Shown: in pieces, positions 4,454 through 57,476 of the stretch | Layout of the letters: every line of letters begins with the position of its first letter | How positions within the stretch are numbered: position 1 is the stretch's first letter | Assembly (NCBI GenBank): GCA_963666055.2 | Contig: CAXWPH010000015.1 | Coordinates: 1,248,001-1,312,000 of the forward strand | From: Acidobacteriota bacterium | GTDB taxonomy: Bacteria > Acidobacteriota > UBA890 > WLXD01 | DNA: 64,000 nt | Direction: 5' to 3' | Program-made: the position numbers and the translations under genes | The notes under the pieces: model-generated | Told to the model about the DNA's origin: nothing | What the model saw: the letters and a program-made list of their open reading frames with translations, nothing else | The model's database searches: none

Positions 4454-6463
4454 CTAGTGATCCGGTTGGGCTAGTCCGGTAGGTAGCGCCACGGCGGCGA
4501 GCGAACCGGAGTGGGCCGGCCCGCCTATGGGCAGCACGATGTACTGCCTGCCCTCGTGCATGTAAGTCATCGGCGCGCTGTTGCTCTGCGCCGGGATATC
4601 CACCGTGCCGAGTCGCTCGCCGGTGAGCTTGTCGACCGCGTGCAACAGTGGAGCGCCGCGGCGGCCCTCGGCGTAGATGAGCAGTGTCTTGGTAATCACC
4701 TTGGTGGCGTGCGACGGCTTGCCGGTGTTGGGGATATCGAGGCCTTGCAGTGCCGGGTGATGGATAATCGACTCGGGTGTGTCGCCGTTGGGGATCCACC
4801 ACAGATGCTCGCCGGTGTTCAGATCGATCGCCGTGATACGACCGTAGGGCGGCTTGAGGTAGGGCAGTCCCTGGACCCGGCCAGGCCCGACGCTCGGTCC
4901 GCTCGCCCACGCCATGACTGTCTTGCCGATCGGGTTGGGATCGTTGGCATCTGCCTCGATGCCGGGGATCAGCGATTGCCCGGAGCAGGTCTTGGTAGAC
5001 GCGACGTAGAGGATCTGGGTCTGCGGGTCGACCGCTGCTCCTCCGGGGATGTTGGTGCCGCCGCCCCCACCGGGGCAGATCAATGAGGTCTTGAAGCCCA
5101 GGTTGTTGTCGCGGTGTAGCGGTGGGTTGAAGAGCGGGCCGAGCTGGAATTCGCTGAGCATCTCTACCGCCGCCTGCCGGAGCTCTGGCGTGAAGTCGAT
5201 CAGGTCGTCCTCGGTGACGCCCTGCATCTCGTACGCTGCCGGCCTCGTCGGGAACGGTTGCGTCGGCGATGTTTGCTCCCCGGGGATCTTCGACGACGGA
5301 ACCGGGCGCTCCTCGATCGGCCATACCGGCTCGCCGGTCTCACGGTTGAGCACGTAGGCGAAGCTCTGCTTGGTCGTCTGTACCAACGCCGGGATCTTCT
5401 TGCCGTCGACGGTGATGTCGACGAGGTTCGGCGCGGTGGGGTTGTCGTAGTTCCAGATGTCGTGATGCACGGTCTGGAAGTGCCAGCGGCGCTCACCCGT
5501 CTTGATGTCGACGGCGATGATGGAGGTGGCGAAGAGGTTGTCGCCGGGAGAGAAGCCGCCCCAGTAGTCGTTAGTCGGCGGATCGGTGACGAAGTAGACC
5601 AGCCCGAGCTCCGGGTCAGCGGCCATCGGTGCCCATGCCGAGACGTTGCCGGTGTACGACCAGGCATCGCTTTCCCAGGTGTCGTGGCCGAACTCGCCGG
5701 GCTGCGGGATAACGTTGAACTTCCACAGGTGATCGCCAGAACGCGCGTCGTACGCCAGCACGTGCCCGGGCACGTTCTCGCGTCGGGTCTGCCGGTAACC
5801 CTGCTCGTGCGAGTTGCCCACCACCACCACGTCGTTGACCACCATCGGCGGCGAGGAGTTGGTGATGTAGCCGGTTTCCGTGGGAAGCCCCTCGTAGGCG
5901 TCGTACTCGTAGCCGAGGTCGGCCAGCAGATCTACGGTGCCCTCGTTGCCGAACTGCTCGATTGGCTTTCCGGTGACGGCGTCGAGCGCGTGCAGGAAGA
6001 AGCCCGGCGAGATCATGTAGATCACACCGCGGCGGTCGATGTTGGCGTACCCGACGCCCTTGCCATAGTTCTTCCGCATCGAGTCTTCCCAGCGCGGCGT
6101 GTAGGGCTCGCGGTAGGTCCACAACGTCTCGCCGGTGGCCGGATCGATAGCGACGACCGTGCGCCGCTGACCGGCGACGGTGTACAGCACCCCGTTCGCG
6201 TAGGTCGGCGTGGAGCGCATGATGTTGTCCACCGAGGGGCCGTAGTTGTCGCCCCGCCACACCCAGGCGACCTCGAGATCCTCGAAGTTGTCGGCGTTGA
6301 TCTGGTCGAGCGGCGAGTAGCGTGTGCTGAAGGTATCGCCGCCCCAGTGGCGCCATTCGCCGTTCTCGGTACCAGTGCTCGATCCGCCGTTCTGACCGAC
6401 CGCAGGCATCGACATCAAGCACAGGGTGAGCGCAATCGCGGCGCCCATCGCAGGTTTCGTCAT
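4454..6463 (-). CDS. PQQ-dependent dehydrogenase (quinoprotein glucose dehydrogenase-like), periplasmic
   Basis: TRYSPLDQINADN, WHFQTVHHDIWNYD, SPTQPFP, KPPYGRITAIDL, PMTYMHEGRQYIV motifs; ATG 6463 overlaps upstream stop. Confidence 0.9.
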   Translation of the reverse strand: MTKPAMGAAIALTLCLMSMPAVGQNGGSSTGTENGEWRHWGGDTFSTRYSPLDQINADNFEDLEVAWVWRGDNYGPSVDNIMRSTPTYANGVLYTVAGQRRTVVAIDPATGETLWTYREPYTPRWEDSMRKNYGKGVGYANIDRRGVIYMISPGFFLHALDAVTGKPIEQFGNEGTVDLLADLGYEYDAYEGLPTETGYITNSSPPMVVNDVVVVGNSHEQGYRQTRRENVPGHVLAYDARSGDHLWKFNVIPQPGEFGHDTWESDAWSYTGNVSAWAPMAADPELGLVYFVTDPPTNDYWGGFSPGDNLFATSIIAVDIKTGERRWHFQTVHHDIWNYDNPTAPNLVDITVDGKKIPALVQTTKQSFAYVLNRETGEPVWPIEERPVPSSKIPGEQTSPTQPFPTRPAAYEMQGVTEDDLIDFTPELRQAAVEMLSEFQLGPLFNPPLHRDNNLGFKTSLICPGGGGGTNIPGGAAVDPQTQILYVASTKTCSGQSLIPGIEADANDPNPIGKTVMAWASGPSVGPGRVQGLPYLKPPYGRITAIDLNTGEHLWWIPNGDTPESIIHHPALQGLDIPNTGKPSHATKVITKTLLIYAEGRRGAPLLHAVDKLTGERLGTVDIPAQSNSAPMTYMHEGRQYIVLPIGGPAHSGSLAAVALPTGLAQPDH

Positions 6464-7344
6464 CGCATTCCACCTCCTGAAACGGACACCGGCACGTACC
6501 CATTCGTCCAGCAACATTGATCACCTGAACTGCTGTCGTTGGCAGCCCAGTTGTCCACCCGGACGCGAAGCACATAGTCGCCGGCTTCGCTGAACGTCGC
6601 GGTTGTAATCGCTTCGCCTATGCCCTCCTCCAACACGATCTCGCGATCCTCGAACACCACCGCGCCGGGGGGGCCTTGATGTTTGAACCAGGTCAGCTTC
6701 ACCGCGACACCATCCCTGTTCGCGGTGTCGTGGTCAAACCGTTCCGAGATCTCGCTAGCCCATACCGTCAGCGCTAGCGGGCTTCCCACCGTCGCGACCC
6801 GTGGCTGGTTCAGCCTGACACCCGTAGGGTGCTGGCCCTCCATCCCGTTGGGCTCAAGCCTCAATAGAGGTGGTACGGACCCCATACCCCGCGGTCCGTA
6901 GTCGAGCTGAAGGGCGTCGATTCCCACCCTTGCCGGCACCGAATAGGTCACGCCGTTGGCACGGATGGTCCACACAACTCGCCGCTCTCCATCTCCATAC
7001 GACGCTGGCACCGTCACCGTGAAAACACCCCTGTCTCGGCGTGGATCGACCGGGAAGTGCGTCGGCTGCTCACCATTGAACACGGCTGGTTCGACGAAGT
7101 TATCCGGCCCGATGGGAATCTCGAGTATCTCCTCCAAATTCAAGTTGAAGTACCCGAACGAGAACGTGTAGGTGCCGTCTGAGTTCGCGTACCAGCCTTC
7201 AAAGAACGGAGCTACCGGTTCGCCTGCTGGTGGTCGCGGCGCCAGCGGAAGCCGCTGCACCTGCTGTGCCCCGACAGGTGCCGAGCTCATGATGGCGGCG
7301 ATCAGCGCCAAGCAAGGACTGACCCGGAGCAGGCGGCCCTTCAT
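6460..7344 (-). CDS. Conserved secreted hypothetical protein with C-terminal Ig/PKD-like domain
   Basis: Signal peptide; PFFEGWYAN..FSFGYFN, QPTHF, FSEAGDYVLRV, QCCWTNGYV; ATGA overlaps at both ends. Confidence 0.8.
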   Translation of the reverse strand: MKGRLLRVSPCLALIAAIMSSAPVGAQQVQRLPLAPRPPAGEPVAPFFEGWYANSDGTYTFSFGYFNLNLEEILEIPIGPDNFVEPAVFNGEQPTHFPVDPRRDRGVFTVTVPASYGDGERRVVWTIRANGVTYSVPARVGIDALQLDYGPRGMGSVPPLLRLEPNGMEGQHPTGVRLNQPRVATVGSPLALTVWASEISERFDHDTANRDGVAVKLTWFKHQGPPGAVVFEDREIVLEEGIGEAITTATFSEAGDYVLRVRVDNWAANDSSSGDQCCWTNGYVPVSVSGGGMR

Positions 7345-8696
7345 CTCTGAGCTGCCACCTCTGCGTTTGCTTTCCTGTTGGCAACCTGTTGCTCGTAGCC
7401 CGCCTCGTCCAAGTGGGTTACCGCAAGCCAGGCGTGCGACATCTCGTCCATCGTACGGGCGCCTCGCGCATACCAGATTTCTGGATCGGGATTCAGCGGG
7501 TTGTTCTCCGTGTTGTCGTACCACGCGGTGATAACCAAGACGGTACCCGTGGGCAACAGCGGAGCCGCGTCGTCCTCATAGATATAACTGTGGTGCCATC
7601 TGGCGTTGAAGTTGGTCACCATGCTCAAGAGTTCCTGCGAGCCATCCGGATAGATCGCCCGCATGGATTTCGCATGAAGATGCACATGCCCGTGGGGCTG
7701 GAAGCTGTCGATGCGGACCGGATGATCCCAACGGTGGAAGCCCTGGGTCATCGCGGTTCCACCGGGTGCCAGGGCAATATCACCGTCCAGACGGTACATC
7801 GCCAGGTCTTGTGTGAACTCCGGCTCGTAGTCCTCGGGATATAACCAGAGGCCAAGCTCGATCTGATCGTCCTCGACGACATAGCCCATCGGGTAGTAAT
7901 GCACGTCCCATTCGATTAGCGCGTTCACCGGCAGCAAACGGGCTGCGTCTGACGGGATGATCTCGCCGATCTTGCCCATGGCATATTCCGAGAGCATCGC
8001 CGTCCGGACCCATTCACCATCCTCGTCCTGGGTCATTAATCTAGGGATGGCGTGGTGCACGACTTGACGGCCGGCGGGGAAGGAAGGCCGTATTTCGAAG
8101 GCCCGAATCAGCCTGTCCGCGTTGAGCCCCGTCTCCACTCTCGGACGCCACCAGATGTCGCCTCCCTCGGCCGGCACCGTATAGGGTCTCGACTCGATGA
8201 CGTGATCCGGCTCGCCCAGCTGGTCTTCGAGCTGCCACTTGTTGCCCTCCGGCCATTCCACCGGGGGCGGCATATCCGCCACGTCCCCCCTCGGCGTGCC
8301 GCTATCCACCCATGCGACGATGGTCTGGATCTGTTGCTCACTCAGCCTCCAGTCGTTCTTGATTGCCTGGATCCCGACACGTGTATCGAGGTGATACGGA
8401 GGCATTTCCCTGGCGGCCACCTGATCCTTGATCCGTGTTGCATAGCGTTTAGCCTGAGCATAGGTAAGAAGAGACATCGGCCCGACTGAGCCCGGCCGAT
8501 GGCAGATCTGACAGTTCTCCTGCAGAATCGGCGCCACGTCCCGAGTAAACGAGACAGCGTTTCCCTCGCCCGACACTGACTCATCGGACTGCTGCATCGA
8601 GAAAGCGTCGCCGCGGAAAGTCAGTAGGAAGAGGAGCGCTAACAGACAGGTCCCCAATAGCCCTGGATGCCTTGCGCGTGCCGATTTGTTGCCCAT
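7341..8696 (-). CDS. Cytochrome c fused to copper type II (PHM/DBH-like) monooxygenase-like domains
   Basis: Signal peptide; CQICH heme motif with distal MPP; VVHH, PHGH and DEM candidate Cu ligands. Confidence 0.75.
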   Translation of the reverse strand: MGNKSARARHPGLLGTCLLALLFLLTFRGDAFSMQQSDESVSGEGNAVSFTRDVAPILQENCQICHRPGSVGPMSLLTYAQAKRYATRIKDQVAAREMPPYHLDTRVGIQAIKNDWRLSEQQIQTIVAWVDSGTPRGDVADMPPPVEWPEGNKWQLEDQLGEPDHVIESRPYTVPAEGGDIWWRPRVETGLNADRLIRAFEIRPSFPAGRQVVHHAIPRLMTQDEDGEWVRTAMLSEYAMGKIGEIIPSDAARLLPVNALIEWDVHYYPMGYVVEDDQIELGLWLYPEDYEPEFTQDLAMYRLDGDIALAPGGTAMTQGFHRWDHPVRIDSFQPHGHVHLHAKSMRAIYPDGSQELLSMVTNFNARWHHSYIYEDDAAPLLPTGTVLVITAWYDNTENNPLNPDPEIWYARGARTMDEMSHAWLAVTHLDEAGYEQQVANRKANAEVAAQR

Positions 8697-8872
8697 GATG
8701 CGCCCTCCTGACAGAAAAGACTGGCGTCGCATTTTGGCCGCCCACGTGAAGCAGGCTAGATGTCGATCATCGCGACCGTCAAGGGACGTTGTAAAATCGC
8801 CGGGGTCGTGATACCGCTCGTTGTGGCAAATGGAAGGAACTGCAGTTTCAGGCTCGACGGATGGAGGGTGGC

Positions 8873-10420
8873 ATGAGCAAGCGAGACACGGGCGAAACAA
8901 ACGGTGCGGAGACCAAACTGAGTCGCCGGACCTTCGCAAAGACCTCGGTCGCCGCGGGTACCGCGGCTGTTGCCCTGCCTAACACGTTGCTCAGCGCGAC
9001 CCCGGCCAAGACCGCCGCGACGAAGGCAACCTACGGTCGCGCCGTCCGTGTCGAGATGCGGGACGAAGGCTTTGGATACGGCGGTAGGGGTGCGCCTCCC
9101 TTGACCGCCCCGGTCCCCCGCACCGCCAGCGTCAACGGCTGGAAAGAGGGCACCACGATTCCCGCCGAGTACTACTTGGACGCAAAGCACTTCGCCGCCG
9201 ACGAGGCGTTCGTGGCGGAGAACTTCTGGCAGTACACCGATCAGGCGAGCCGTATTCCGAATCCCGGCGATTTCTACGTGTTCGAGTTCGGGCGCTCCGA
9301 ATCTATTCTGATCGTCCGCGGACAGGACAACGAGATAAGAGGCTTCTACAACGTCTGCCGCCACCGTGGCTCGCGACTGTGCCGCCACGACGCGGATGCC
9401 AAACCGAGCGACCCGCGCCTGTCGGTCAAGCAACTTGGTCAGAGCGGTAGCTCACCGGTGTTCCGCTGCCCATACCACGCCTGGACGTACGACACCGAGG
9501 GCAGCCTCATCTACGCCTACGGCATGCAGGACGATTTCGACCCGGCGGACAACGGCCTGATTCCCTGCCACTTGCGGGTCGCCGAAGGCCAGGTTTTCGT
9601 CAATCTCTCGAAGTCGGACACGCCGCCGGACTTCGAGTCGGTTGCGAGCCGACTTGGTGCTCTGGCCGACAAGTGGAGCCTGAAGGATCTGAAGGTCGTG
9701 GCCCGTGAGTACTACCCGATCAACGCCAACTGGAAGCTGGCGCTGGAGAACTTCAAGGAGTGCTACCACTGCGGGGCAGCGCATCGACCGCTGGTAACGA
9801 CCCACAACTGGGACAACGACGTCACCGACGAGCAGAGGGCCGAAAGGGCCGCTGCGGTTGCCGCGTGGGTTCCAGAGAAGAACCGGCGGCGGCGGCAGCA
9901 GCCCGCATCAACCGGCATGGGTGGCGAAGGCATGGACGGCGAAGGCATGGACGGCGAAGGCATGGACGACACTCCCGCCTACGGGAGCATGGGCGGGTTG
10001 CTCAATCCCGGCTTCGTCACCGGGTCGATCGATGGCAAGCCCGTGTCGATACTGTTGCCCAACATCACGGAGTGGAACCATGAGACCGGCGGCACCACGA
10101 CATTCGAGTCGACGGGCTACTGGCAAACCTACGACGATCACGTTGCGGTAGCACGGTTCACGCCGCGATCGGAGAAGTTCACCGATTGCGAGATCGTCTG
10201 GTTAGTGCATCCCGATGCCGTCGAGGGTCGCGACTACGATCCCGACAACGTGAAGGCGCTGTGGCACGTCACCATCCAGGAGGACATCTGGATCACCGAC
10301 AACAATCACGCGGGCATCGAGTCTAGCGCCTACGCCGCTGGGCGCTACTCCACCCACGAGGGCGGCCCCTCCCGCTTCATCGACTGGTACATGAAGGAGG
10401 TCGTCAAGGTCGGGGACTAA
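8873..10420 (+). CDS. Rieske non-heme iron oxygenase alpha subunit (GbcA/choline monooxygenase-like) with Tat signal
   Basis: SRRTFAK twin-arginine motif; NVCRHRG...CPYHAWTY; NWKLALENFKECYHCGAAH; QEDIWIT; GGAGGG RBS before ATG 8873. Confidence 0.9.
   Translation: MSKRDTGETNGAETKLSRRTFAKTSVAAGTAAVALPNTLLSATPAKTAATKATYGRAVRVEMRDEGFGYGGRGAPPLTAPVPRTASVNGWKEGTTIPAEYYLDAKHFAADEAFVAENFWQYTDQASRIPNPGDFYVFEFGRSESILIVRGQDNEIRGFYNVCRHRGSRLCRHDADAKPSDPRLSVKQLGQSGSSPVFRCPYHAWTYDTEGSLIYAYGMQDDFDPADNGLIPCHLRVAEGQVFVNLSKSDTPPDFESVASRLGALADKWSLKDLKVVAREYYPINANWKLALENFKECYHCGAAHRPLVTTHNWDNDVTDEQRAERAAAVAAWVPEKNRRRRQQPASTGMGGEGMDGEGMDGEGMDDTPAYGSMGGLLNPGFVTGSIDGKPVSILLPNITEWNHETGGTTTFESTGYWQTYDDHVAVARFTPRSEKFTDCEIVWLVHPDAVEGRDYDPDNVKALWHVTIQEDIWITDNNHAGIESSAYAAGRYSTHEGGPSRFIDWYMKEVVKVGD
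9923..9967 (+). repeat. 3 x 15-bp perfect tandem repeat GGCGAAGGCATGGAC (GEGMD)
   Basis: Directly visible at 9923, 9938 and 9953. Confidence 0.95.
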
Positions 10421-10472: not shown

Positions 10473-11714
10473 GTGAGGCCAATCACGCGGGCGATCGCGA
10501 TTCTGCTGGTGCTGGCGTTGTCGGTTGCCTGTACGCCACAGCCGGCCTCCGAGCCCGCCGAAGCCACTGCGGAGCCGGGCTCCGACCAAGCCGAGCCAGC
10601 GGAAGGCGAGGAGCAGGGCGAGCCGGAAGTGGATCCTGAGCTGGCCATCATTCGGCTGGACCCGAACGACGAGAACCTCGAGGTGTGGAGAGATCGAGAC
10701 ATCTCGGACGATCCACCACGAGAGCCCGGACCGGTTGGAATCGGGGCGGCCCTGAGCTTCTTCCGGCTGCCCATCGCGGTGACCGTCGAGGACCTGATCG
10801 CTGGCGAAGTGGAGGTGGCGTTTATCGGAGCCCCGGTCGACATGGGGGTCGGCTATCGAGGCGCTGGCGAGGGACCCACCGCGATGCGCGCGCTCCGGCG
10901 CGGCGTCGGCAGCATGGAGACGATGATCAGCTGGAAGGAGGAGCTGAAGGCCGTGGACTACGGCAACGCGCCCATCGACAATCTGAGCGTCGAGCGCAGC
11001 ATGCCACCGATTCGGCGGATGGTTCGGGAGATCGCCGAGACGGGGGCGATTCCCATCATCATCGGCGGCGATCACTCCATCGAGTTCGCCAACGTTGCCG
11101 GGCTCGCCGACGTGTACGGCAAGGAGAACGTCGGCGTCATCCACTTCGATGCTCACTACGACGCCGGCGGCACGCGCAGCGGCCACCTGATCTCCCATGC
11201 CCAGCCGGTACGTCGGCTCGTCGACGACGGACACGTCCTCGGCCGGAACTTCATCCAGGTGGGCCTTCGGGGCGCCTGGCCGGGGGAGGCCGGATTCGAG
11301 TGGATGCGGGCCAACAACCTTCGCTACCACACGATGGCGGAGATCAATCGCGATGGTTGGGGGGCCGTCATGGAACGGGTTCTCGACGAGGCGAACGACG
11401 GGCCGGAGTACCTCCACATCTCCTTTGACATCGACGTCATGGACCCGGCGTACACCGAGGGAACAGGTACGCCGGTGCCGGGCGGCCTGATGCCCCGCGA
11501 GGTGTTCCCCCTCATCCGCGGCCTCTGCGCCGAGAACAACGTCGTTGGATTCGACCTGGTCGAGTTGAACCCTCTCCTCGACCCCGGCTACACGACCGTG
11601 CTCAACTCCAAACAAGTTGTCGACGAGTGCCTGACCGGGATTGCGATGAAGAAGCTAGGGCTCAGCGGCAGGGACTACCTGAGCCCGCTCACGGCGACCG
11701 ACGGCCGGCGGTAG
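10473..11714 (+). CDS. Agmatinase/ureohydrolase family lipoprotein
   Basis: Lipobox LSVAC; GGDHS, HFDAHYD, SFDIDVMDP, GTGTP motifs. Confidence 0.9.
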   Translation: MRPITRAIAILLVLALSVACTPQPASEPAEATAEPGSDQAEPAEGEEQGEPEVDPELAIIRLDPNDENLEVWRDRDISDDPPREPGPVGIGAALSFFRLPIAVTVEDLIAGEVEVAFIGAPVDMGVGYRGAGEGPTAMRALRRGVGSMETMISWKEELKAVDYGNAPIDNLSVERSMPPIRRMVREIAETGAIPIIIGGDHSIEFANVAGLADVYGKENVGVIHFDAHYDAGGTRSGHLISHAQPVRRLVDDGHVLGRNFIQVGLRGAWPGEAGFEWMRANNLRYHTMAEINRDGWGAVMERVLDEANDGPEYLHISFDIDVMDPAYTEGTGTPVPGGLMPREVFPLIRGLCAENNVVGFDLVELNPLLDPGYTTVLNSKQVVDECLTGIAMKKLGLSGRDYLSPLTATDGRR

Positions 11715-11794
11715 CAGGCCGAGTCGCGGGCCCGTCGCGAATGAGTGAGACGAGGTCGGAACCCTCGTCAGTTACTGACCCAGTGAGGCTCCAA

Positions 11795-13534
11795 ATGCAC
11801 CCGCAACGTGCCCTCATTTTTTCACTGACTCTGCTCACGACCCTCGTCTCTGTCGCCTGCAGCGATCCCGCCGATGAGACGACCCCCGCCACTCACGCGG
11901 ATTTGGTTGTCGTCAATGCCGACGTTCGTACCGTTGACCCAGCCATTCTTGCGGCAGAAGCGTTTGCCGTCGGAGATGGCCGGATTATCGCTATTGGCTC
12001 GACCGTCGAGATCGCTGCGCTCGCTGGCGACACAACCACGGTCGTCGACGCGGCTGGCTCAACGGTAATACCGGGTCTTGTCGACGGACATACTCACCTT
12101 GTTGGCGGCGCCGGGCTGGCCGTCGGTGTTGATCTGTCCGAAATAGAAGACAAGAGCGAATGGCTGCGCATCATTCGGGACAAAGCCCAAACTCTGCCCG
12201 ATGGCGCGTGGATCCTGGGCGGCGCCTGGGACCACAATCTCTCCGACGGTGTGTTGCCGACAAAGGAGATGCTCGACTCCGTCGCCCCCGACAACCCGGT
12301 GCTTCTCTGGGACATTGATCATCATTCGAGCTGGGCCAATAGCCTCGCCATAGAACTCGCCGGCGTGACGGCCGACAGCCCCGTGCCGACGGGCGGTCAA
12401 ATACTGGTCGACTCGACCACCGGTGAGCCCACCGGAGTGTTTCTCGAAACTGCAGCGGCGCTGTTCGACGATGCACCGGGCCTACAGGAAGCAGCGGACC
12501 CCGAAGCCGGAATCAGGGCGGCTGTGGCGCTTGCGAACAGCTATGGGATTACTAGCGTGCACGACATGAGCGGCAACCATGACGCGTTCCTGTCGGTCAT
12601 GAAGGATGGGGCTCTGACGGTACGAATCTGGCAGGGAGCGTTCTCAAACAATGCGAGCGCCGAGTCAGCCGTACAGTTTTTCCGCGATCTAGACGTCGAG
12701 AGAAGCCGGCTGCGGGAGACGATCGCGGAGTTCACTGGAACGAAGACAACCGGGCCGCTATTCGAGCTCGGCTATGTGAAACTGATGATCGATGGTGTTC
12801 TTTCTACGCACACCGCGTTGATGAAAGAACCGTACGCCGACAACCCGGAGGCGCAGGTCGAGCCATTCGTCAGTCGCCAGGATCTGGACACTATGGTGGC
12901 AGCGGCACACGACGCTGGCTTTCCGGTAGCAGTGCACGCCATAGGTGATGAGGGGGTGTCCTGGGTGCTGGATTCGTTCGCCGCGTCGCCGAGGCCGCCC
13001 GGTGTGCCGATAGATCGCGTCGAACACATAGAGGTCGTCACTCCTGATGATGTGCAGCGATTCAGCTCACTCGGTATAGCGGCCTCCATGCAGCCGCATC
13101 ACGCCACCTGCTGCGTCGGTAGCTACGTGGTCGATCGCATCGGCCCAGATCGCCTGCCGAATGCATATGTGTGGCGGCAAATGCTGGACAACAACATTCC
13201 CCTGGTGCTTGGGTCCGACTGGCCGACTTCTCCATTGAGTCCGCTGATCCAGATCGCCGATACGCTACACCGTGAAACCCAGATCGATGGTGCCGTTCGA
13301 CCGTGGGATGAGGGCAATAGGCTGACGTTTGAGGAAGCGCTGCACGGTTACACCCAAGCCGGCGCGAACATGACGGCCTGGGGCGATGAAATCGGCAGCA
13401 TTACCGTTGGCAAGTGGGCCGATTTCGTCATTCTCGATGAGTTGCTATCCGCTGAGGCCGACCGCAGCATCGAGAATCGCCGGGTGACGGCAACCTACCT
13501 CGCCGGCCGGCAGGTCTATCCGAGAGACCCATAG
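11795..13534 (+). CDS. Amidohydrolase 3 (YtcJ-like), lipoprotein
   Basis: PGLVDGHTH, KLMIDG, HAIGD, RVEHIE, GSDWP, GSITVGKWADF; lipobox VSVAC. Confidence 0.9.
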   Translation: MHPQRALIFSLTLLTTLVSVACSDPADETTPATHADLVVVNADVRTVDPAILAAEAFAVGDGRIIAIGSTVEIAALAGDTTTVVDAAGSTVIPGLVDGHTHLVGGAGLAVGVDLSEIEDKSEWLRIIRDKAQTLPDGAWILGGAWDHNLSDGVLPTKEMLDSVAPDNPVLLWDIDHHSSWANSLAIELAGVTADSPVPTGGQILVDSTTGEPTGVFLETAAALFDDAPGLQEAADPEAGIRAAVALANSYGITSVHDMSGNHDAFLSVMKDGALTVRIWQGAFSNNASAESAVQFFRDLDVERSRLRETIAEFTGTKTTGPLFELGYVKLMIDGVLSTHTALMKEPYADNPEAQVEPFVSRQDLDTMVAAAHDAGFPVAVHAIGDEGVSWVLDSFAASPRPPGVPIDRVEHIEVVTPDDVQRFSSLGIAASMQPHHATCCVGSYVVDRIGPDRLPNAYVWRQMLDNNIPLVLGSDWPTSPLSPLIQIADTLHRETQIDGAVRPWDEGNRLTFEEALHGYTQAGANMTAWGDEIGSITVGKWADFVILDELLSAEADRSIENRRVTATYLAGRQVYPRDP

Positions 13535-13914: not shown

Positions 13915-16233
<2,319 letters not shown>

Positions 16234-24420: not shown

Positions 24421-24618
24421 TGCCCGGTGGCGAGTTCGAGACCCATCTGGCCCGAGTGCGCGCCAACCTGCACTTCTCGGATCGAGTGCTGATCGACTCG
24501 CTCGCACAGTACAGCACGATTAGCGACCAGGTATCGCTGTTCGCGCGGCTGCGGTACATCTACCGCACCGGGCGACGACTTCTACCTCGTCTATCGACAG
24601 ACGACCGCTTACGAGGGC
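24420..24618 (+). pseudogene. C-terminal fragment of an outer-membrane beta-barrel (DUF5916-like) protein, frameshifted
   Basis: SLAQYSTISDQVSLFARLRYIYRTG / DDFYLVY. Confidence 0.5.
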
Positions 24619-24852
24619 GTGTTCGTTGTCTGGCTCGTGCACCCGGACGCTCGCGAGGGCATCGACTTCGATCCCGACAACGTCAAGGCGCTCTGGCACG
24701 TGACGATCCAGGAGGACATCTGGATCACCGAAAACAACCACGCCGGCATCGAGTCCGGCGCCTACACAGCAGGTCGATACTCCAGCCACGAGGGCGGCTG
24801 CTCCGGTTTCATCAGCCGGTACATGAAGGAGATCGTCACGGCTGGGGACTAA
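24619..24852 (+). pseudogene. C-terminal fragment of a third Rieske oxygenase paralog
   Basis: WLVHPDAREGIDFDPDNVKALWHVTIQEDIWITENNHAGIES nearly identical to the C-termini of the genes at 8873 and 57476. Confidence 0.85.
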
Positions 24853-46692: not shown

Positions 46693-48921
46693 CTAGTCGT
46701 CTATCCCGAAGGCCAGTAGCACATTGCCCGGTGTATTGCCGAAAAGCCCGTACCCGGATCCCAGGTACATCATCCCATCGACGATCGTTGGGGAGGTGGC
46801 ACCAATTGCGCCGCCGAAGGCCGGCACTTCGTTAACGGCTTCGTAGGTTCGTTTCGTCGTGTATTCCCAGAGAATCTCGCCGTCCGCCTTTGAATATGCA
46901 TGGAGTGTCCCTTGGGACGAGCCGGTGATTACCGCGCCGGGCACTGCGGTTGCCGCCGCCGTATAACCCGAGGAGCAAGCGTTCCAACCCGACAGGTTGC
47001 AGTCCTCCAGCCCCGGCAGTTCCCTGTACCAGACGCGCTCGCCCGTCGTCACCCGCAACGCCGCAACGGCCCCGCTCGCGTCCCGGTAGTTCAGTGGACG
47101 ATAGAAGAGCTCGCCGTCTGACGCCCCGCCCCAACCCGCGCCGTTAGGAGCAAGCCGGTCGCCGGCCTGGGCCACCCAGAGAACTGCCCCGTCGTTGTCA
47201 GGATCCAAAGCCGTGATGCGGCCGCTCTCCTGTACGCCCAGCAGCACTCTGCGACCGTTCGGCAGGTCGAGCAGAATCGCCTGGTTGACGTCGTCGCCCG
47301 GGCCCTGAATGTAGCCAGGGCAATTGACCAGACGCTCGGGACCTCGCCCGCAGCCACCTTCGTCTCGATCCGAGGACGCCGGAAGGAGGTTGGTCATCCA
47401 CAACCGTCGGCCGGTATCCATGTCGATGGCCAGTATCGAGCCGCAGGCGCCGCCGTCGAAGGACACGTTGCCGACACCGAAGTGCTCAGTGATGTTGCAG
47501 TTGCCGGTGGGCGCATAGATGGCGCGCCGTTTTTCGTCGATCGTGAGCGAGCTCCAGATGCCGGCGCCGGCTGGTCCGAACAGCGGCGTGCCGGCCGAGT
47601 TCGTCTTGTTGAGTGGCCGAGGCCGTTCTGGAAAAGAGTACGTTTGCCAGACCTTCTCCCCGGTCTTCACGTCGACGGCCACGACGCTACCCTGGAACGT
47701 GCAGCACTCGTACTCGACATAGGAACCAGGCTGCTCTTCCCACGACGCGACCGGCACATACAGGCGCTCGCCTGAGGAATCGAGCCTGACTGCGGATGTG
47801 ATCTTCGCCTGTGGATGATCGTCGGCGCGCAGGGTCCACATCTCTTGCCCCGTCTCGGCGTTGACGCCGTACACGACCCCGCTCATGTCGCCGAAATACG
47901 CGCCATAGCGGACCCCCGGTACATCATCGACCGGGCCGACCTTGACGGCGCCCCGGACCGCCGTCTGCGCGCGGTACGACCAGTGAACGCAGCCCGTCTT
48001 GGCGTCGAGCGCATACACGAAGAAGTTATCGCTCGTCAGGAACAGTGCACCGCCCACCACGCTGGGTTGCGACCAGTTGGCGACCGAGGCATCCGGGATG
48101 GCGAAAACCCACTTCAGCTTCAGCCGCGGGAGGTCCTCCGCGGTGATGCCGCCGACCGCCTCCGACGCGAACCGATGCACACCGAGCTCGGGATCCCAAC
48201 CGTTCCAACTCGGCTGGTTCTCCCAGTTGTCCAGGTTTATGGACTCTGCACACTGGTTCGGCATGGCCGCCGCCTCGCGGTGGGCAACGCCGCCGAACGG
48301 CTTGCCAGTCACGAGCTCGATGACGGCACGCTTGTACTCTTCGTTGCCGAAGATCCGGAAGCGATCACTCTCGTCATGTGCCGCGATCGGCCGGTTCAAC
48401 ACTGCCAGGAGCTCGTCGGCTTCCATCTGCTGAATATCGAACCGTGAGGGCATGTTGGCGGCAGCGGTCCCGCCCGAAACGGGGCGACCGACAGGTGAAT
48501 TGTCGTGGCAGACCGCACACCCGTTTTCGAACACACCGACCATCCTTGCAGGATAGACGGTGCGGTCGACCGAGCCACCGAGAGGCTTGCCGGTCACCAG
48601 TTCTGCCATTGCCCGTAGCTCGTCGTCCCGGAACTCGGATGTGAACTCCACCATGGGCCCTTCCATCAGGGCAATGAGCACCTGCTCTGGCTCCATCTGT
48701 CGAAGCGCCTCCCGAGTGGGTGCCAGGATCTCGTCGCTCTGATTGTCATGACAGTCGGCACAGATCGCTTCATACGTCGCCACCATGCTGGCGGCAGAGG
48801 CCATGGCCTTCGGGCCCGGCACATCTTGAGCCTGGACGGGCGAAGTAAGGAGCTGCGTCGTCAATGCGCACACAGCCACGATCACCGTCACCGCGCTCAT
48901 GGTTAGTACTCGTCTCAGCAT
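46693..48921 (-). CDS. Quinohemoprotein PQQ dehydrogenase (polyvinyl alcohol dehydrogenase-like) with two c-heme motifs
   Basis: CADCH and CAVCH; LKLKWVF, GCVHWSY, ECCTFQGSV, GPAGAGIWS, YLGSGY, GNVLLAF. Confidence 0.88.
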   Translation of the reverse strand: MLRRVLTMSAVTVIVAVCALTTQLLTSPVQAQDVPGPKAMASAASMVATYEAICADCHDNQSDEILAPTREALRQMEPEQVLIALMEGPMVEFTSEFRDDELRAMAELVTGKPLGGSVDRTVYPARMVGVFENGCAVCHDNSPVGRPVSGGTAAANMPSRFDIQQMEADELLAVLNRPIAAHDESDRFRIFGNEEYKRAVIELVTGKPFGGVAHREAAAMPNQCAESINLDNWENQPSWNGWDPELGVHRFASEAVGGITAEDLPRLKLKWVFAIPDASVANWSQPSVVGGALFLTSDNFFVYALDAKTGCVHWSYRAQTAVRGAVKVGPVDDVPGVRYGAYFGDMSGVVYGVNAETGQEMWTLRADDHPQAKITSAVRLDSSGERLYVPVASWEEQPGSYVEYECCTFQGSVVAVDVKTGEKVWQTYSFPERPRPLNKTNSAGTPLFGPAGAGIWSSLTIDEKRRAIYAPTGNCNITEHFGVGNVSFDGGACGSILAIDMDTGRRLWMTNLLPASSDRDEGGCGRGPERLVNCPGYIQGPGDDVNQAILLDLPNGRRVLLGVQESGRITALDPDNDGAVLWVAQAGDRLAPNGAGWGGASDGELFYRPLNYRDASGAVAALRVTTGERVWYRELPGLEDCNLSGWNACSSGYTAAATAVPGAVITGSSQGTLHAYSKADGEILWEYTTKRTYEAVNEVPAFGGAIGATSPTIVDGMMYLGSGYGLFGNTPGNVLLAFGIDD

Positions 48922-48962
48922 TGGATTCCTCCAGTCCAGACATTCTCGGTTTTGAAGAACAT

Positions 48963-49042
48963 TGACCTGCCCCAAGTGTTGAGGCTACTTCGTAACTCAT
49001 AGAATCGGTGCTGGCAACGTCGCTTCCGGTGCAGGCGGCCGA
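48963..49042 (-). mobile_element. IS3-family right-end remnant with transposase C-terminal tail
   Basis: Terminal TGACCTGCCCC; minus strand reads RPPAPEATLPAPIL*, resembling IS3 OrfB ends. Confidence 0.7.
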
Positions 49043-51576: not shown

Positions 51577-53252
51577 TTAGATCTCGTTGAAGTACCCGTA
51601 GTTCCGAGGCACCAATTCGGTCGCGGCACGATAGCCTTCGTCCATCGCCGCCTGCGCGAGGCTCAGGCCGGCCGCGTCGGAGTTCGCGATGGTGATCCTC
51701 CCGAACGGCTGATGACCCACGACCGTGGGGTGGTTCTCGCCCGTCCACTCGGCGGGATCGAACAGCGCGTTGGTTCCCATCGCGAACCCGTGCGGCCAAC
51801 GATTGATCGTGATGGCCTCGATGTCGCGGGCGGGATCGAAACCGCCGGGCGAGAGGACTCGCGCGAGCTGCTCCCGGATCCGACGCTCGAAGTCCTCGAA
51901 CGAGGTCCCCAACATATGGGTCCGAAGCGCCGCGAGCTGCTCCCGGAGCGGAGTGCCGGGCGCGGGTGGATTGCCGCCGAACAACTCCCGAACCATGGTG
52001 CTGTGGTGCAGAACACCGGACGGGCTCTGCAATCCCACCAGCGCGGGCTTAGCAGGGTCGAGCTCCGGCCGGTATGTGCCGAAGTGCCTCGGTGTACGGA
52101 GATTGAACGTGTTGTAGAACATCCCCGGGCTGTCCACTCCGGTAATGCCCAACCGTTCGAACGACGTCCAGGTCCGAACCAAGACCGTGGTCATCATGTT
52201 CACCGCCCGGTCGGCGAGGAGGAGTGCCTCCCGCTGCTCGTCGGGTAACTCCGGACAGATGTACGGAATCATCGAGTTGTCGCAGGCGAGAATGGTCCCC
52301 TTCGAACGAACCCGGTACAGCCTGCCCGCCCGAACATAGGTAACTTCGGTCTCCCGATCGTCCGTGCGCAGGCGGCCGACGGGTGCCTCGCCCAGATGCT
52401 TGACCTGAACGGCGATGCTGTTCAGCCGGATCCTCACCGGCGTGCTCGGCTCGTCGAGCTTGGAGTAGTCCGCGCGATCCAGGACAACGTCCGCCATTCG
52501 GCCCGCCGGCAGGACGGCCGGAATCAGAGAGCGAACGATGAGTCGCGCGATGTCGGAGTTGCGCGCTCCGACACGGGCGTCCGCACGAGGAAGTCGTGCG
52601 TCGGTTGCGAAAGACCGCCACCCGTGACCAGGCGGTCCTCCCCGAACGTCTCCCGGTCGAAGAACGTCCCTCGCACCATCCCCCGGCTACGGAACGCGCC
52701 TGAATCCACTATGTTTGTGGGCTCGTCGAGCTCGACACCGATATCGCGGAGCATGGCCATGACCGGCGCGGGGTAGGTCATGGCCCGAACCATGTAGGAC
52801 GACCCCCCGTTCGAGATCAGCGTCCCCGCACTTGTCTCGAACTCGTTTCGCTTGGCGTGGCCGCCGAAGTCGTCGTGATTGTCGAGGATCAGGATCCGAG
52901 CTTCCGGACCCGTCATCTGACGATAGAAGTACGCCGCGGCCAGACCGCTGAAGCCACCTCCGACGACGATGGCGTCGTAGCTTTCGTCGACAGTTGCCGC
53001 GCCTTCCCAGTTGGCACCGTCGCGCGTCCTGTGTGCCGCCTCGAAGGACCCCGGATGGGCCCCGCGCATCCCTGTTCGGAGAGGCGGGTAGCTCTCGGCG
53101 TCACCTGGTCTGACCTGAAGCGACGTCGGCGCCGGGGGCCGGGTGATTCCCGGGATCACCATGGCTCCACCCACCACGGCGCCGACCCCCGCAACGAAGT
53201 CCCGACGCTTGATCGGTCGATGCATCCCCAATGCGCGATCGTTGTCGTTCAT
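51577..53252 (-). pseudogene. Spermidine dehydrogenase (SpdH)-like Tat flavoprotein, broken by an internal deletion/frameshift at about 52562
   Basis: KRRDFVAG Tat motif; YPPLRTGMRGAHPGSFE; VGGGFSG; DNHDDFGGHAKRNEF; ITINRWPHG; GRITIANSDA. Confidence 0.82.
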
Positions 53253-55943: not shown

Positions 55944-57476
55944 TCAGTGGTCGCCCGGCGTTACTACCTCGCTCATGTACCACTTCACGAATCCGGCCGG
56001 GCCCGTCTCGGCACCCGAGTACCGACCCGAGCGATAGGCATCCGAGCGGATCCCCGCGTGGTTGTTGTCGGTGATCCAGATGTCCTCCTGGATCGTCACG
56101 TGCCACAGAGCCTTGACGTTGTCCGGATCGTAGTCGCGGCCTTCCACGGCATCCGGGTGCACGAGCCAAATAATCTCGCAGTCGGTGCGGTTGACGTCCC
56201 GCGGGGTGAACCGCGCGATAGCAACGTGGTCGTCATAGCACTGCCAGTATCCGGTGGAGTGGGCCGTGGTGGCGTTCTGGGTCTCGTGGTTCCATGCGTC
56301 GATGTTCGGCAACAACGGCGCCACAGGCTTTCCGTCCAGCGAACCGGTCACGAAGCCAGGGTTCAGATGCCCTGAGGTCTCCGGCTTGTACTGCGACCCG
56401 TCCGACCCGGCCATTCCATCCATCCCACCTTGCCGATCGCGGCGGGCCTTCTCCGGCACCCAGGCATGGACCTTGGCCGTTTGCGCCGCCAACTGCTGTG
56501 GCGTGGCCTCGTAATCGTAGTGGTGGGTTGTGGAAAGTGCCTGGTGCGATGGCCCGCAGTGGTAGCATTCCTGGAAGTTCTCCAGCGCCAGCTTCCAGTT
56601 GGCCTTGATGGGGTATTGCTCCCGGGCAGCGATCGTCAGGTCGGCCACGCCATAGCGCTCGGTAAGCGCGCGCATCTGTGCAACCGCCGCGTCAAGCTCC
56701 GGCGGCTCTTGCGCCCGTGAGAGGTTCACGAAGATGCTGCCCTCGACCGTCCCGAGGTGGCAGGGGACCAGCCCGTTGTCGGCCGGGTCGAAGTCGTCCT
56801 GCATGCCGTAGGCGTAGATCAGGTTGCCGTCGGTATCGTACGTCCAGGCATGGTAGGGGCAGCGGAATACCGGCGAGCTACCGCTCTGCCCGAGCTGCTT
56901 GACCGACAGGCGCGGGTCGCCGGGTGTCGGGTCGGCATCGTGCCGGCACAGTCGTGAGCCCCGATGGCGGCAGACATTGTGGAACCCTCTCACCTCGCCG
57001 TCGCTGCTTCGCACGATGATGACGCTCTCAGAACGGCCAAACTCGAACACGAAGTAGTCGCCTGGGTTCGGAATGCGACTTTGGTGGTCGACGTACAGCC
57101 ACAGGTTCTCGGCGATGAATCGCTCGTCGGCGAGATAATGCCTCTCGTCGTTGTAGTACTCGCCCGGGATGGTCGTGCGCTCGCGCCAGCCGCCCGGGTA
57201 GCCGTGGCGCGCAGGCTCACGTCGGCGCCCCGCCTCTTGCTCGATGTCCGGGCCGCCGTAGCCGCCGGGATCGGGTGGCAGGGCGGGACGATGGCTCCGC
57301 CCGTAGTTCGGCAGCGCTGCCGCCTCGGTAGCCTTTCCCTCGGCGGCAACTTCACCACGCAGCGTCCCGGGGAGGGCAACGGCTGCGCCGGCAGCAACCG
57401 AGGTCTTGGCAAAATCACGCCGGTTGACCCTCCGGCCGACCACCCCGTGCTTGTTTTCGCTCCGTTCTTCGCCCAT
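55944..57476 (-). CDS. Rieske non-heme iron oxygenase alpha subunit with Tat signal (paralog of 8873)
   Basis: NRRDFAK; NVCRHRG...CPYHAWTY; ENFQECYHCGPSH; QEDIWIT. Confidence 0.9.
   Translation of the reverse strand: MGEERSENKHGVVGRRVNRRDFAKTSVAAGAAVALPGTLRGEVAAEGKATEAAALPNYGRSHRPALPPDPGGYGGPDIEQEAGRRREPARHGYPGGWRERTTIPGEYYNDERHYLADERFIAENLWLYVDHQSRIPNPGDYFVFEFGRSESVIIVRSSDGEVRGFHNVCRHRGSRLCRHDADPTPGDPRLSVKQLGQSGSSPVFRCPYHAWTYDTDGNLIYAYGMQDDFDPADNGLVPCHLGTVEGSIFVNLSRAQEPPELDAAVAQMRALTERYGVADLTIAAREQYPIKANWKLALENFQECYHCGPSHQALSTTHHYDYEATPQQLAAQTAKVHAWVPEKARRDRQGGMDGMAGSDGSQYKPETSGHLNPGFVTGSLDGKPVAPLLPNIDAWNHETQNATTAHSTGYWQCYDDHVAIARFTPRDVNRTDCEIIWLVHPDAVEGRDYDPDNVKALWHVTIQEDIWITDNNHAGIRSDAYRSGRYSGAETGPAGFVKWYMSEVVTPGDH

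Follow-up and report, generated by a model that had tools for sequence, protein, structure and literature searches.

The Rieske oxygenase encoded at 8873..10420 of a 64-kb stretch of Acidobacteriota DNA (the window) is read here, with somewhat better than even probability, as a periplasmic amine-dealkylating group V enzyme that is exported by the twin-arginine (Tat) system with its cofactors and takes electrons from periplasmic heme proteins, not from an NAD(P)H reductase. Given the export signal conserved in its clade and the exported heme proteins often found next to clade members, the enzyme likely oxidises amines in the periplasm on electrons that are predicted to come from those proteins. 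Going by its sequence, the enzyme family is known, and what is new is its predicted compartment and predicted electron source. To our knowledge, every characterised Rieske oxygenase needs an NAD(P)H reductase; this keeps such enzymes tied to cytoplasm or plastid and is a burden on their use as biocatalysts. No description of an exported Rieske oxygenase was found in the titles and abstract starts of the open-access papers listed, and the available parts of PMC7576179 and PMC10579966 hold nothing on localisation.

The oxygenase, its reading frame and its iron site

The following features were assigned to the focal gene.

8863..8867, + strand: Shine-Dalgarno-like GGAGG, five bases 5' of the ATG at 8873 (sequence)
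8873..10420, + strand: Rieske oxygenase alpha subunit reading frame, 515 aa, with Tat leader and long insert (PF00355 and PF00848)
8873..9007, + strand: predicted twin-arginine leader (SRRTF at 8921-8935, Ala/Gly h-region, putative cleavage near L-S-A/T-P-A)
9356..9478, + strand: Rieske ligands C162, H164, C199 and H202 with a 34-residue spacer (all four invariant in 48 sequences)
9389..9439, + strand: approximate 17-residue clade-specific insert (gap of 17 against 3N0Q, Stc2 and CntA; S184, V185 and Q187 invariant)
9752..9784, + strand: iron-site motif F294-x-E296-C-Y-H299-C-x3-H304 (bridging Glu, Cys pair, aromatic at the CntA Y203 position; roles from the available parts of PMC7948474 and PMC10952381)
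9923..9967, + strand: three tandem 15-bp copies encoding GEGMD, in a disordered Gly/Met/acidic loop of the catalytic domain (sequence; pLDDT under 50 at 342-368)
10283..10285, + strand: Asp471, by alignment the carboxylate of the 2-His-1-carboxylate triad (invariant; aligned with Stc2 ED)

An in-frame ATG four codons upstream of 8873, at 8861, changes nothing, and the later in-frame starts at codons 39, 62 and 77 lack a Shine-Dalgarno-like site. A true start downstream of the RR motif, which the first-pass annotation had named as evidence against its reading, is not what was found. Scans for promoters and terminators gave no signal above chance level. The 15-bp repeats are exact and lengthen the Gly/Met/acidic loop; GM-rich loops occur at the same place across the clade.

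Judged from these letters, the protein is an intact Stc2/CntA-like (group V) Rieske oxygenase. Its PF00355 match is above cut-off, and the nearest solved proteins by sequence, 3N0Q (E 3e-53) and Stc2 (6e-51), are also the nearest by fold. The predicted model (pLDDT 76, pTM 0.78) has the Rieske plus catalytic-domain fold and aligns to 3VCA over 367 residues with Z 33.7 and rmsd 3.0. The iron site first noticed as ECYHC-x3-H together with QED was recovered as ECYHCGAAH, containing E296, H299 and H304, and as QED containing D471; these four residues are invariant and align with Stc2 and CntA. The Cys-x-x-Cys pair by the iron, a group V trait (PMC10952381), occurs in 126/126 clade sequences. Phe294 aligns with CntA Tyr203, a position that holds Phe in 123/126 and an aromatic residue in 125/126 clade sequences, against an aromatic in 54/95 leaderless ones; the clade therefore departs from the group Vb trait of having no aromatic there, as given in the available part of PMC7948474. 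According to the same part of that paper, CntA Tyr203 makes a cation-pi contact to the ammonium group and Phe is tolerated in its place. The aromatic at this position and the neighbouring genes point to a cationic N-alkyl amine as the likely substrate. Identity with GbcA itself was considered and rejected, the protein scoring 229 bits on the NCBIfam GbcA model (NF058607) against a curated cut-off of 670; the second paralog in the window, with 238 bits, also falls below it.

A predicted Tat leader and a long Rieske spacer in one clade

SRRTFAK occupies residues 17-23 and is followed by an Ala/Gly/Val stretch with a best 13-residue hydropathy of 1.31, in agreement with the leader and hydrophobic stretch of the first-pass annotation. 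The Tat call was made with an S/T-R-R-x-F/L motif rule of our own making combined with conservation, and the cleavage site was placed from the homolog consensus L-R/G-A-E. Among the proteins of the host genome, the rule fires on 99/2361 N-termini versus 12/2361 internal control windows. The same rule finds a leader in 110 of the nearest 120 homologs (best 120 of 5323 matches), while the annotated starts of the remaining 10, judged from annotation, lie inside or after it; none of 116 short-spacer relatives has one. Conservation of RR among close homologs, on which the earlier reading depended, was found throughout, RR and the Phe at +3 being kept in 110/110 leader-bearing sequences among the best 120 of 5323. 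In these 110, the n-region (6-54 aa) and the linker (38-99 aa) are free to vary in length, and the Arg codons of RR vary synonymously across 60 loci. Since the control windows match in only 12 cases, and RR and Phe are conserved while n-region, linker and Arg codons vary, the leader goes beyond chance.

The features of a Tat substrate are all present, namely the S/T-R-R-x-F/L motif, an h-region, a putative cleavage site and TatC in the host genome. Summed over the readings discussed below, it is highly probable that the enzyme is exported by Tat, as predicted from these features. Little probability is given to a leader that does not export, whether as a remnant, a chaperone handle or an inner-face tether, with the enzyme working in the cytoplasm on Fpr and ferredoxin. 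Such an arrangement would fit an h-region that is only mildly hydrophobic (1.1-2.3) and a host genome that has an Fpr-like gene, a plant-type ferredoxin and two Rieske ferredoxin genes, which must serve the leaderless copies. It is opposed by RR, Phe, h-region and AxA-like end being conserved over a clade of about 45-50% identity, and by clade neighbours that are overwhelmingly exported proteins.

The Rieske motif is stretched, as originally described, with 34 residues from C162-R-H164 to C199-P-Y-H202, 17 more than in Stc2, 3N0Q and CntA and outside the 16-19 usual for Rieske oxygenases. The spacer is 34-35 in 120/120 nearest homologs (best 120 of 5323) versus 16-19 in 115/116 short-spacer relatives. 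In the predicted model the insert region has a pLDDT of 51-67, and the residues after CPYH (W, Y) are the same as in leaderless relatives. The second CRH reported within the insert does exist, at residues 170-172, but it has no special role. The Cys corresponds to the RGSxIC Cys normally present in Stc2 and 3N0Q (Cys in 86/116 short-spacer relatives), and 21 of the 120 homologs (best 120 of 5323) have another residue in place of the His, so that this CRH is not a cluster-binding pair; an extra metal site or ligand pair was rejected on these grounds.

Leader and insert mark a single clade of 80 rows with SH support 100, obtained with the insert cut out of the alignment, and the co-occurrence that the first-pass annotation had asked about was thereby seen in a FastTree tree of 127 rows with SH-like support only and long outgroup branches. 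This tree was restricted to loci of 430 aa or longer and to 40 of the short-spacer relatives, with identical genome copies omitted. Among 149 further representatives, 116 have a short spacer, 17 a long spacer and 16 no motif region; of the 17, six have the leader, eight look N-truncated and three fall outside the clade. In the host genome 16 full copies were counted, of which three are nearly identical, along with two remnants and three oxygenases that have no leader. All 16 full paralogs have RR and a spacer of 34-44, and the three leaderless ones a spacer of 17-18. Two further clade members lie in the window.

24493..24852, + strand: C-terminal remnant of another clade member (sequence comparison)
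55944..57476, - strand: second full paralog, 62% identical, with the same leader and 34-residue spacer (sequence comparison)

The host genome, which is 95.7% complete, is assigned to Acidobacteriota by its kin. Among the matches listed in a contig scan, mainly leaderless relatives, the close kin are Acidobacteriota MAGs. An exact DNA motif pattern, which misses divergent members, was matched in 8/401 genomes of the phylum and in 119 metagenome stretches. It gave 5, 18, 23 and 18 oxygenase copies in four congeners and none in 6 other genomes of the same family. Three near-identical oxygenase-SpdH pairs with a 44-residue spacer occur in different contexts (C2:337291, C2:405578 and C6:305099), one of them beside tat gene fragments; they reflect either a unit that was recently duplicated or mobilised, or strain variants that were assembled together.

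Candidate electron donors around the clade

No match to PF00970 or PF14759 and no GbcB-type or ferredoxin-reductase-type partner was found in the host genome. Of its two PF00175 matches, one reads as an Fpr-like protein that stands alone and the other as PyrK in a pyr cluster, and the sole match of fused-reductase queries is a small ferredoxin. The claim that the 64-kb window has no reductase or ferredoxin gene was upheld: none of the genome's PF00175 and PF00111 matches falls inside it, and the closest are some 28-32 kb upstream of the focal gene. A dedicated reductase family was found neither in the host genome nor in 35 clade loci, and the consistent linkage to a cytoplasmic FNR-type reductase that the first-pass annotation had listed against itself was not seen. 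Absence of a reductase was nevertheless rejected as a mark of the leader clade, because 0/45 leaderless loci have a dedicated one, or any within 3 kb, and the three leaderless oxygenases of the host genome have none beside them either. The same reductase query does find one in the short locus L009. It was also observed that most sampled leaderless GbcA-like oxygenases (L007-L080) are without an FNR-type reductase within 3 kb (0/45).

The first recurrent neighbour is a homolog of spermidine dehydrogenase (SpdH), a flavo-heme enzyme that passes electrons from FAD to a surface heme b (available part of PMC12564564). A Tat-bearing SpdH homolog lies within 500 bp on the same strand in 5/14 distinct paralogs and within 5 kb in 9/14, against a background of 0.43% and 4.7%, respectively, of 2313 genes; among genes near any SpdH (n=471) the values are 2.1% and 23%. 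A directly adjacent SpdH was seen in 0/102 copies of six exported control families. The SpdH-like neighbour matches the 7D9F family at E 1e-122 and keeps His54 and His562, as counted on the alignment. Of 28 full SpdH-like reading frames, 27 have a Tat motif and 25 match both His motifs.

Across 60 chosen genomes, SpdH motifs number 20-26 in the four congeners, with 5-23 oxygenase copies each, 6 in G250, and 0 in the oxygenase carriers G060 and G335; the 53 genomes without the oxygenase pattern have 0-1, with one in 7/53. The oxygenase and SpdH families expand together. The co-expansion with about 30 SpdH-like genes suggests an unrecognised route of periplasmic amine catabolism in uncultured Acidobacteriota. 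The host genome contains 34 SpdH-like loci (28 full-length), most of them not by an oxygenase, for an enzyme that is usually present once. A broken copy lies in the window.

51577..53252, - strand: SpdH-like flavo-heme gene, broken into two frames and lacking about 95 residues, 2.7 kb behind the second paralog (sequence)

No fusion of the oxygenase with SpdH or a cytochrome was found in a weak search (3 matches among 4558 candidates). P0271 and P0270 were rejected as leaderless oxygenases joined to unrelated genes, P0271 being without likeness to SpdH, and a 1469-codon frame in L249 as an upstream out-of-frame run.

The second recurrent neighbour, seen outside the genus, is a secreted His/Met class I cytochrome c, which was found directly behind the oxygenase in 9/30 distant loci with enough flank and in 0/18 near loci. 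In the linked cytochromes CxxCH and MP are invariant. Linkage was seen in 11/15 rows of one subclade and, convergent or in line, in two other branches. One family accounts for 27 distinct cytochromes in 757 kb of loci, and 21 of them are no more than 400 bp from an oxygenase, as found with a profile built from adjacent copies; this profile weakly matches Cbp2D 7B21 (E 0.001). In all three carriers outside the genus the cytochrome stands directly behind the oxygenase, the order in G250 being SpdH-oxygenase-oxygenase-cytochrome. In the host genome the family is never beside an oxygenase (nearest 17 kb).

A natural acceptor of this kind would also suit an enzyme running outward, a periplasmic dehydrogenase-like protein that oxidises its substrate at the iron and passes electrons through the Rieske cluster to cytochrome c and respiration. 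The invariant CxxCH and MP of the His/Met class I cytochrome, and the presence of the same family beside a PQQ dehydrogenase in the host genome, are compatible with such flow. The iron site, however, agrees with that of O2-activating group V enzymes at every residue, and mononuclear Fe(III) is in general a weak oxidant for amines, which leaves outward flow very unlikely.

Taken together, SpdH or the cytochrome, one or both, lies within 3 kb in 18/35 clade loci versus 0/45 leaderless loci, one of which (L022) has a distant SpdH-like gene just past the 3 kb limit; 17/35 clade loci have neither. These linkage counts overstate independence, because the loci, reduced from 136 to 88 at 90% identity, still share ancestry and adjacent copies were the source of the cytochrome profile. 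The proposal of a periplasmic class with a non-NAD(P)H donor, made in the first-pass annotation, is partly supported by the conserved RR, the single clade and the candidate heme donors in clade neighbourhoods, whereas its argument from the missing reductase does not discriminate.

Roughly half of the loci having no adjacent heme partner, it was also considered that the enzyme is periplasmic, that its neighbours are partners in amine breakdown only, and that its electrons come from the quinol pool through a Rieske/cytochrome b complex with an octaheme subunit. A cluster of Rieske ISP, cytochrome b and an eight-heme protein exists at C6:34-40 kb, the neighbours of the clade are mostly amine and amide hydrolases, and SpdH outnumbers the oxygenase about two to one in the host genome. 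Against this, the loci read show no membrane electron-transfer gene that recurs next to the oxygenase, and the cytochrome c linkage is tight, with a gap of often 0-37 bp. Supply from the quinol pool is accordingly rated as rather unlikely.

The focal gene itself has neither SpdH nor cytochrome adjacent (nearest SpdH 41 kb) and heads agmatinase-like and amidohydrolase-3 genes.

4454..6463, - strand: exported PQQ-type dehydrogenase in a divergent operon (PF01011; start from gene caller)
7341..8696, - strand: exported protein, divergently encoded, with a single CxxCH heme motif and a part that is probably copper-monooxygenase-like (weak PF13442; PF03712 carried by 13% of members in Atlas clusters, a preliminary lead)
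10473..11714, + strand: agmatinase/ureohydrolase-like protein with lipoprotein-type signal (PF00491; NCBIfam below cut-offs; lipobox read from sequence)
11627..13534, + strand: amidohydrolase-3 protein with lipoprotein-type signal, start not fixed (PF07969)

Members of the agmatinase/ureohydrolase family are usually cytoplasmic. An orthologous locus, L001, keeps the heme-c and agmatinase-like genes, farther from the oxygenase. On the opposite strand, the exported heme-c protein (7341-8696), an unknown exported protein of ~290 aa (6460-7344, -) and the PQQ dehydrogenase (4454-6463) form a cassette that recurs at C6:423-430 kb and C12:461-465 kb, sometimes with a small cytochrome c. The heme-c protein with the probable copper-monooxygenase part has 11 copies in the host genome, and the cassette is possibly a second periplasmic oxygenase fed by heme c. 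Elsewhere in the window, 46693-48975 (-) encodes a PQQ-type beta-propeller protein with N-terminal cytochrome c domains; in L120 and L169 a homolog of this protein stands immediately upstream of the oxygenase. A catalase-peroxidase-like gene (14032-16233), 3.6 kb downstream of the oxygenase, does not recur in the other loci read. An 871-aa fusion of CDGSH iron-binding, Fer4_19, Rieske and TPP-enzyme domains was noted at L099:6615-9227 (C15:1542611-1545382).

Proposed electron route and comparison with known systems

In the preferred reading, the folded, cofactor-loaded protein would cross the inner membrane through Tat and form the usual head-to-tail trimer. An SpdH-like enzyme would oxidise an amine and pass electrons from FAD to its surface heme b and on to the Rieske cluster, either in one step or by way of cytochrome c, for which PQQ/heme-c dehydrogenases could serve as further reductants. 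From the cluster, electrons would travel by Glu296 to the iron, which would activate O2 and hydroxylate a carbon in an N-alkyl group of a cationic amine, which Phe294 would hold in place. The insert would either reshape the surface by the cluster for a heme partner or raise the potential of the cluster. The focal copy would draw on donors encoded elsewhere in the genome.

The Rieske clusters of oxygenases lie at roughly -150 to 0 mV. For SpdH, the available part of PMC12564564 gives a current onset of -0.14 V vs Ag/AgCl, about +0.06 V vs SHE by our own conversion. The main difficulty is that the heme donors may be too oxidising for the cluster, the SpdH onset and His/Met cytochromes lying above the Rieske range. 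With the residues after CPYH unchanged, any tuning must come from the insert, a region that is modelled with uncertainty. The energetic problem would be removed in a periplasmic peroxygenase, which would use H2O2 from autoxidation of flavoproteins or cytochromes in a peroxide shunt and need a protein reductant for priming only. CntA does oxidise carnitine with H2O2 alone (available parts of PMC7948474 and PMC10952381), but the Rieske ligands and bridging Glu are all invariant, which implies continued electron flow, and the conserved insert by the cluster would go unexplained. A peroxygenase is thus considered improbable.

Beyond the single enzyme, we tentatively propose, at slightly less than even probability, a periplasmic Rieske class that works without NAD(P)H and is connected to flavo-heme amine dehydrogenases and to a small cytochrome c; the oxidation of one amine would then pay, outside the cytoplasm, for the oxygenation of another. 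It would be a bacterial iron counterpart of the CDH-LPMO system and, with genomes of one Acidobacteriota genus carrying 16-23 copies, would act as a toolkit for dissolved organic nitrogen. If this is true, the Rieske cluster can be retuned for higher-potential donors, with the insert as the likely retuning element, SpdH-type surface heme b would have a natural acceptor, and the enzyme could be driven by electrodes or cheap amine donors.

Among known enzymes, the stachydrine demethylase Stc2 (PDB 3VCA, 4QUP), the uncharacterised 3N0Q and the glycine betaine monooxygenase GbcA (group Vb) share the Rieske and iron ligands, the bridging Glu and the Cys-x-x-Cys pair with the focal protein, which adds a Tat leader and a 17-residue insert, has Phe where Stc2 has Asn, and differs in that no reductase partner was found for it. 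Rieske electron-transfer proteins exported by Tat are known in the bc1 ISP and the arsenite oxidase AioB, but these have no mononuclear iron catalytic domain. The carnitine monooxygenase CntA (group Va; PDB 6Y8J) shares the aromatic at the Y203 position, the bridging Glu and the Cys pair, and is more distant (E 1e-28); it requires the FMN/ferredoxin reductase CntB and NADH (available part of PMC7948474). SpdH of Pseudomonas aeruginosa (7D9F) has the same FAD fold, twin-arginine N-terminus and both heme-b His ligands as the neighbours described here, and no oxygenase link is described for it in the available part of PMC12564564; the host genome has 34 SpdH-like loci. The closest functional analogy is with the cellobiose dehydrogenase-LPMO and Cbp2D cytochrome-LPMO systems. 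The LPMO is a high-potential copper enzyme acting on polysaccharide, with no homology to the Rieske oxygenase, yet in these systems too an extracytoplasmic oxygenase is reduced by a flavo-heme dehydrogenase or a c-type cytochrome. As reported in the available part of PMC8981238, a c-type cytochrome of +193 mV drives bacterial LPMOs, and CDH does so in fungi.
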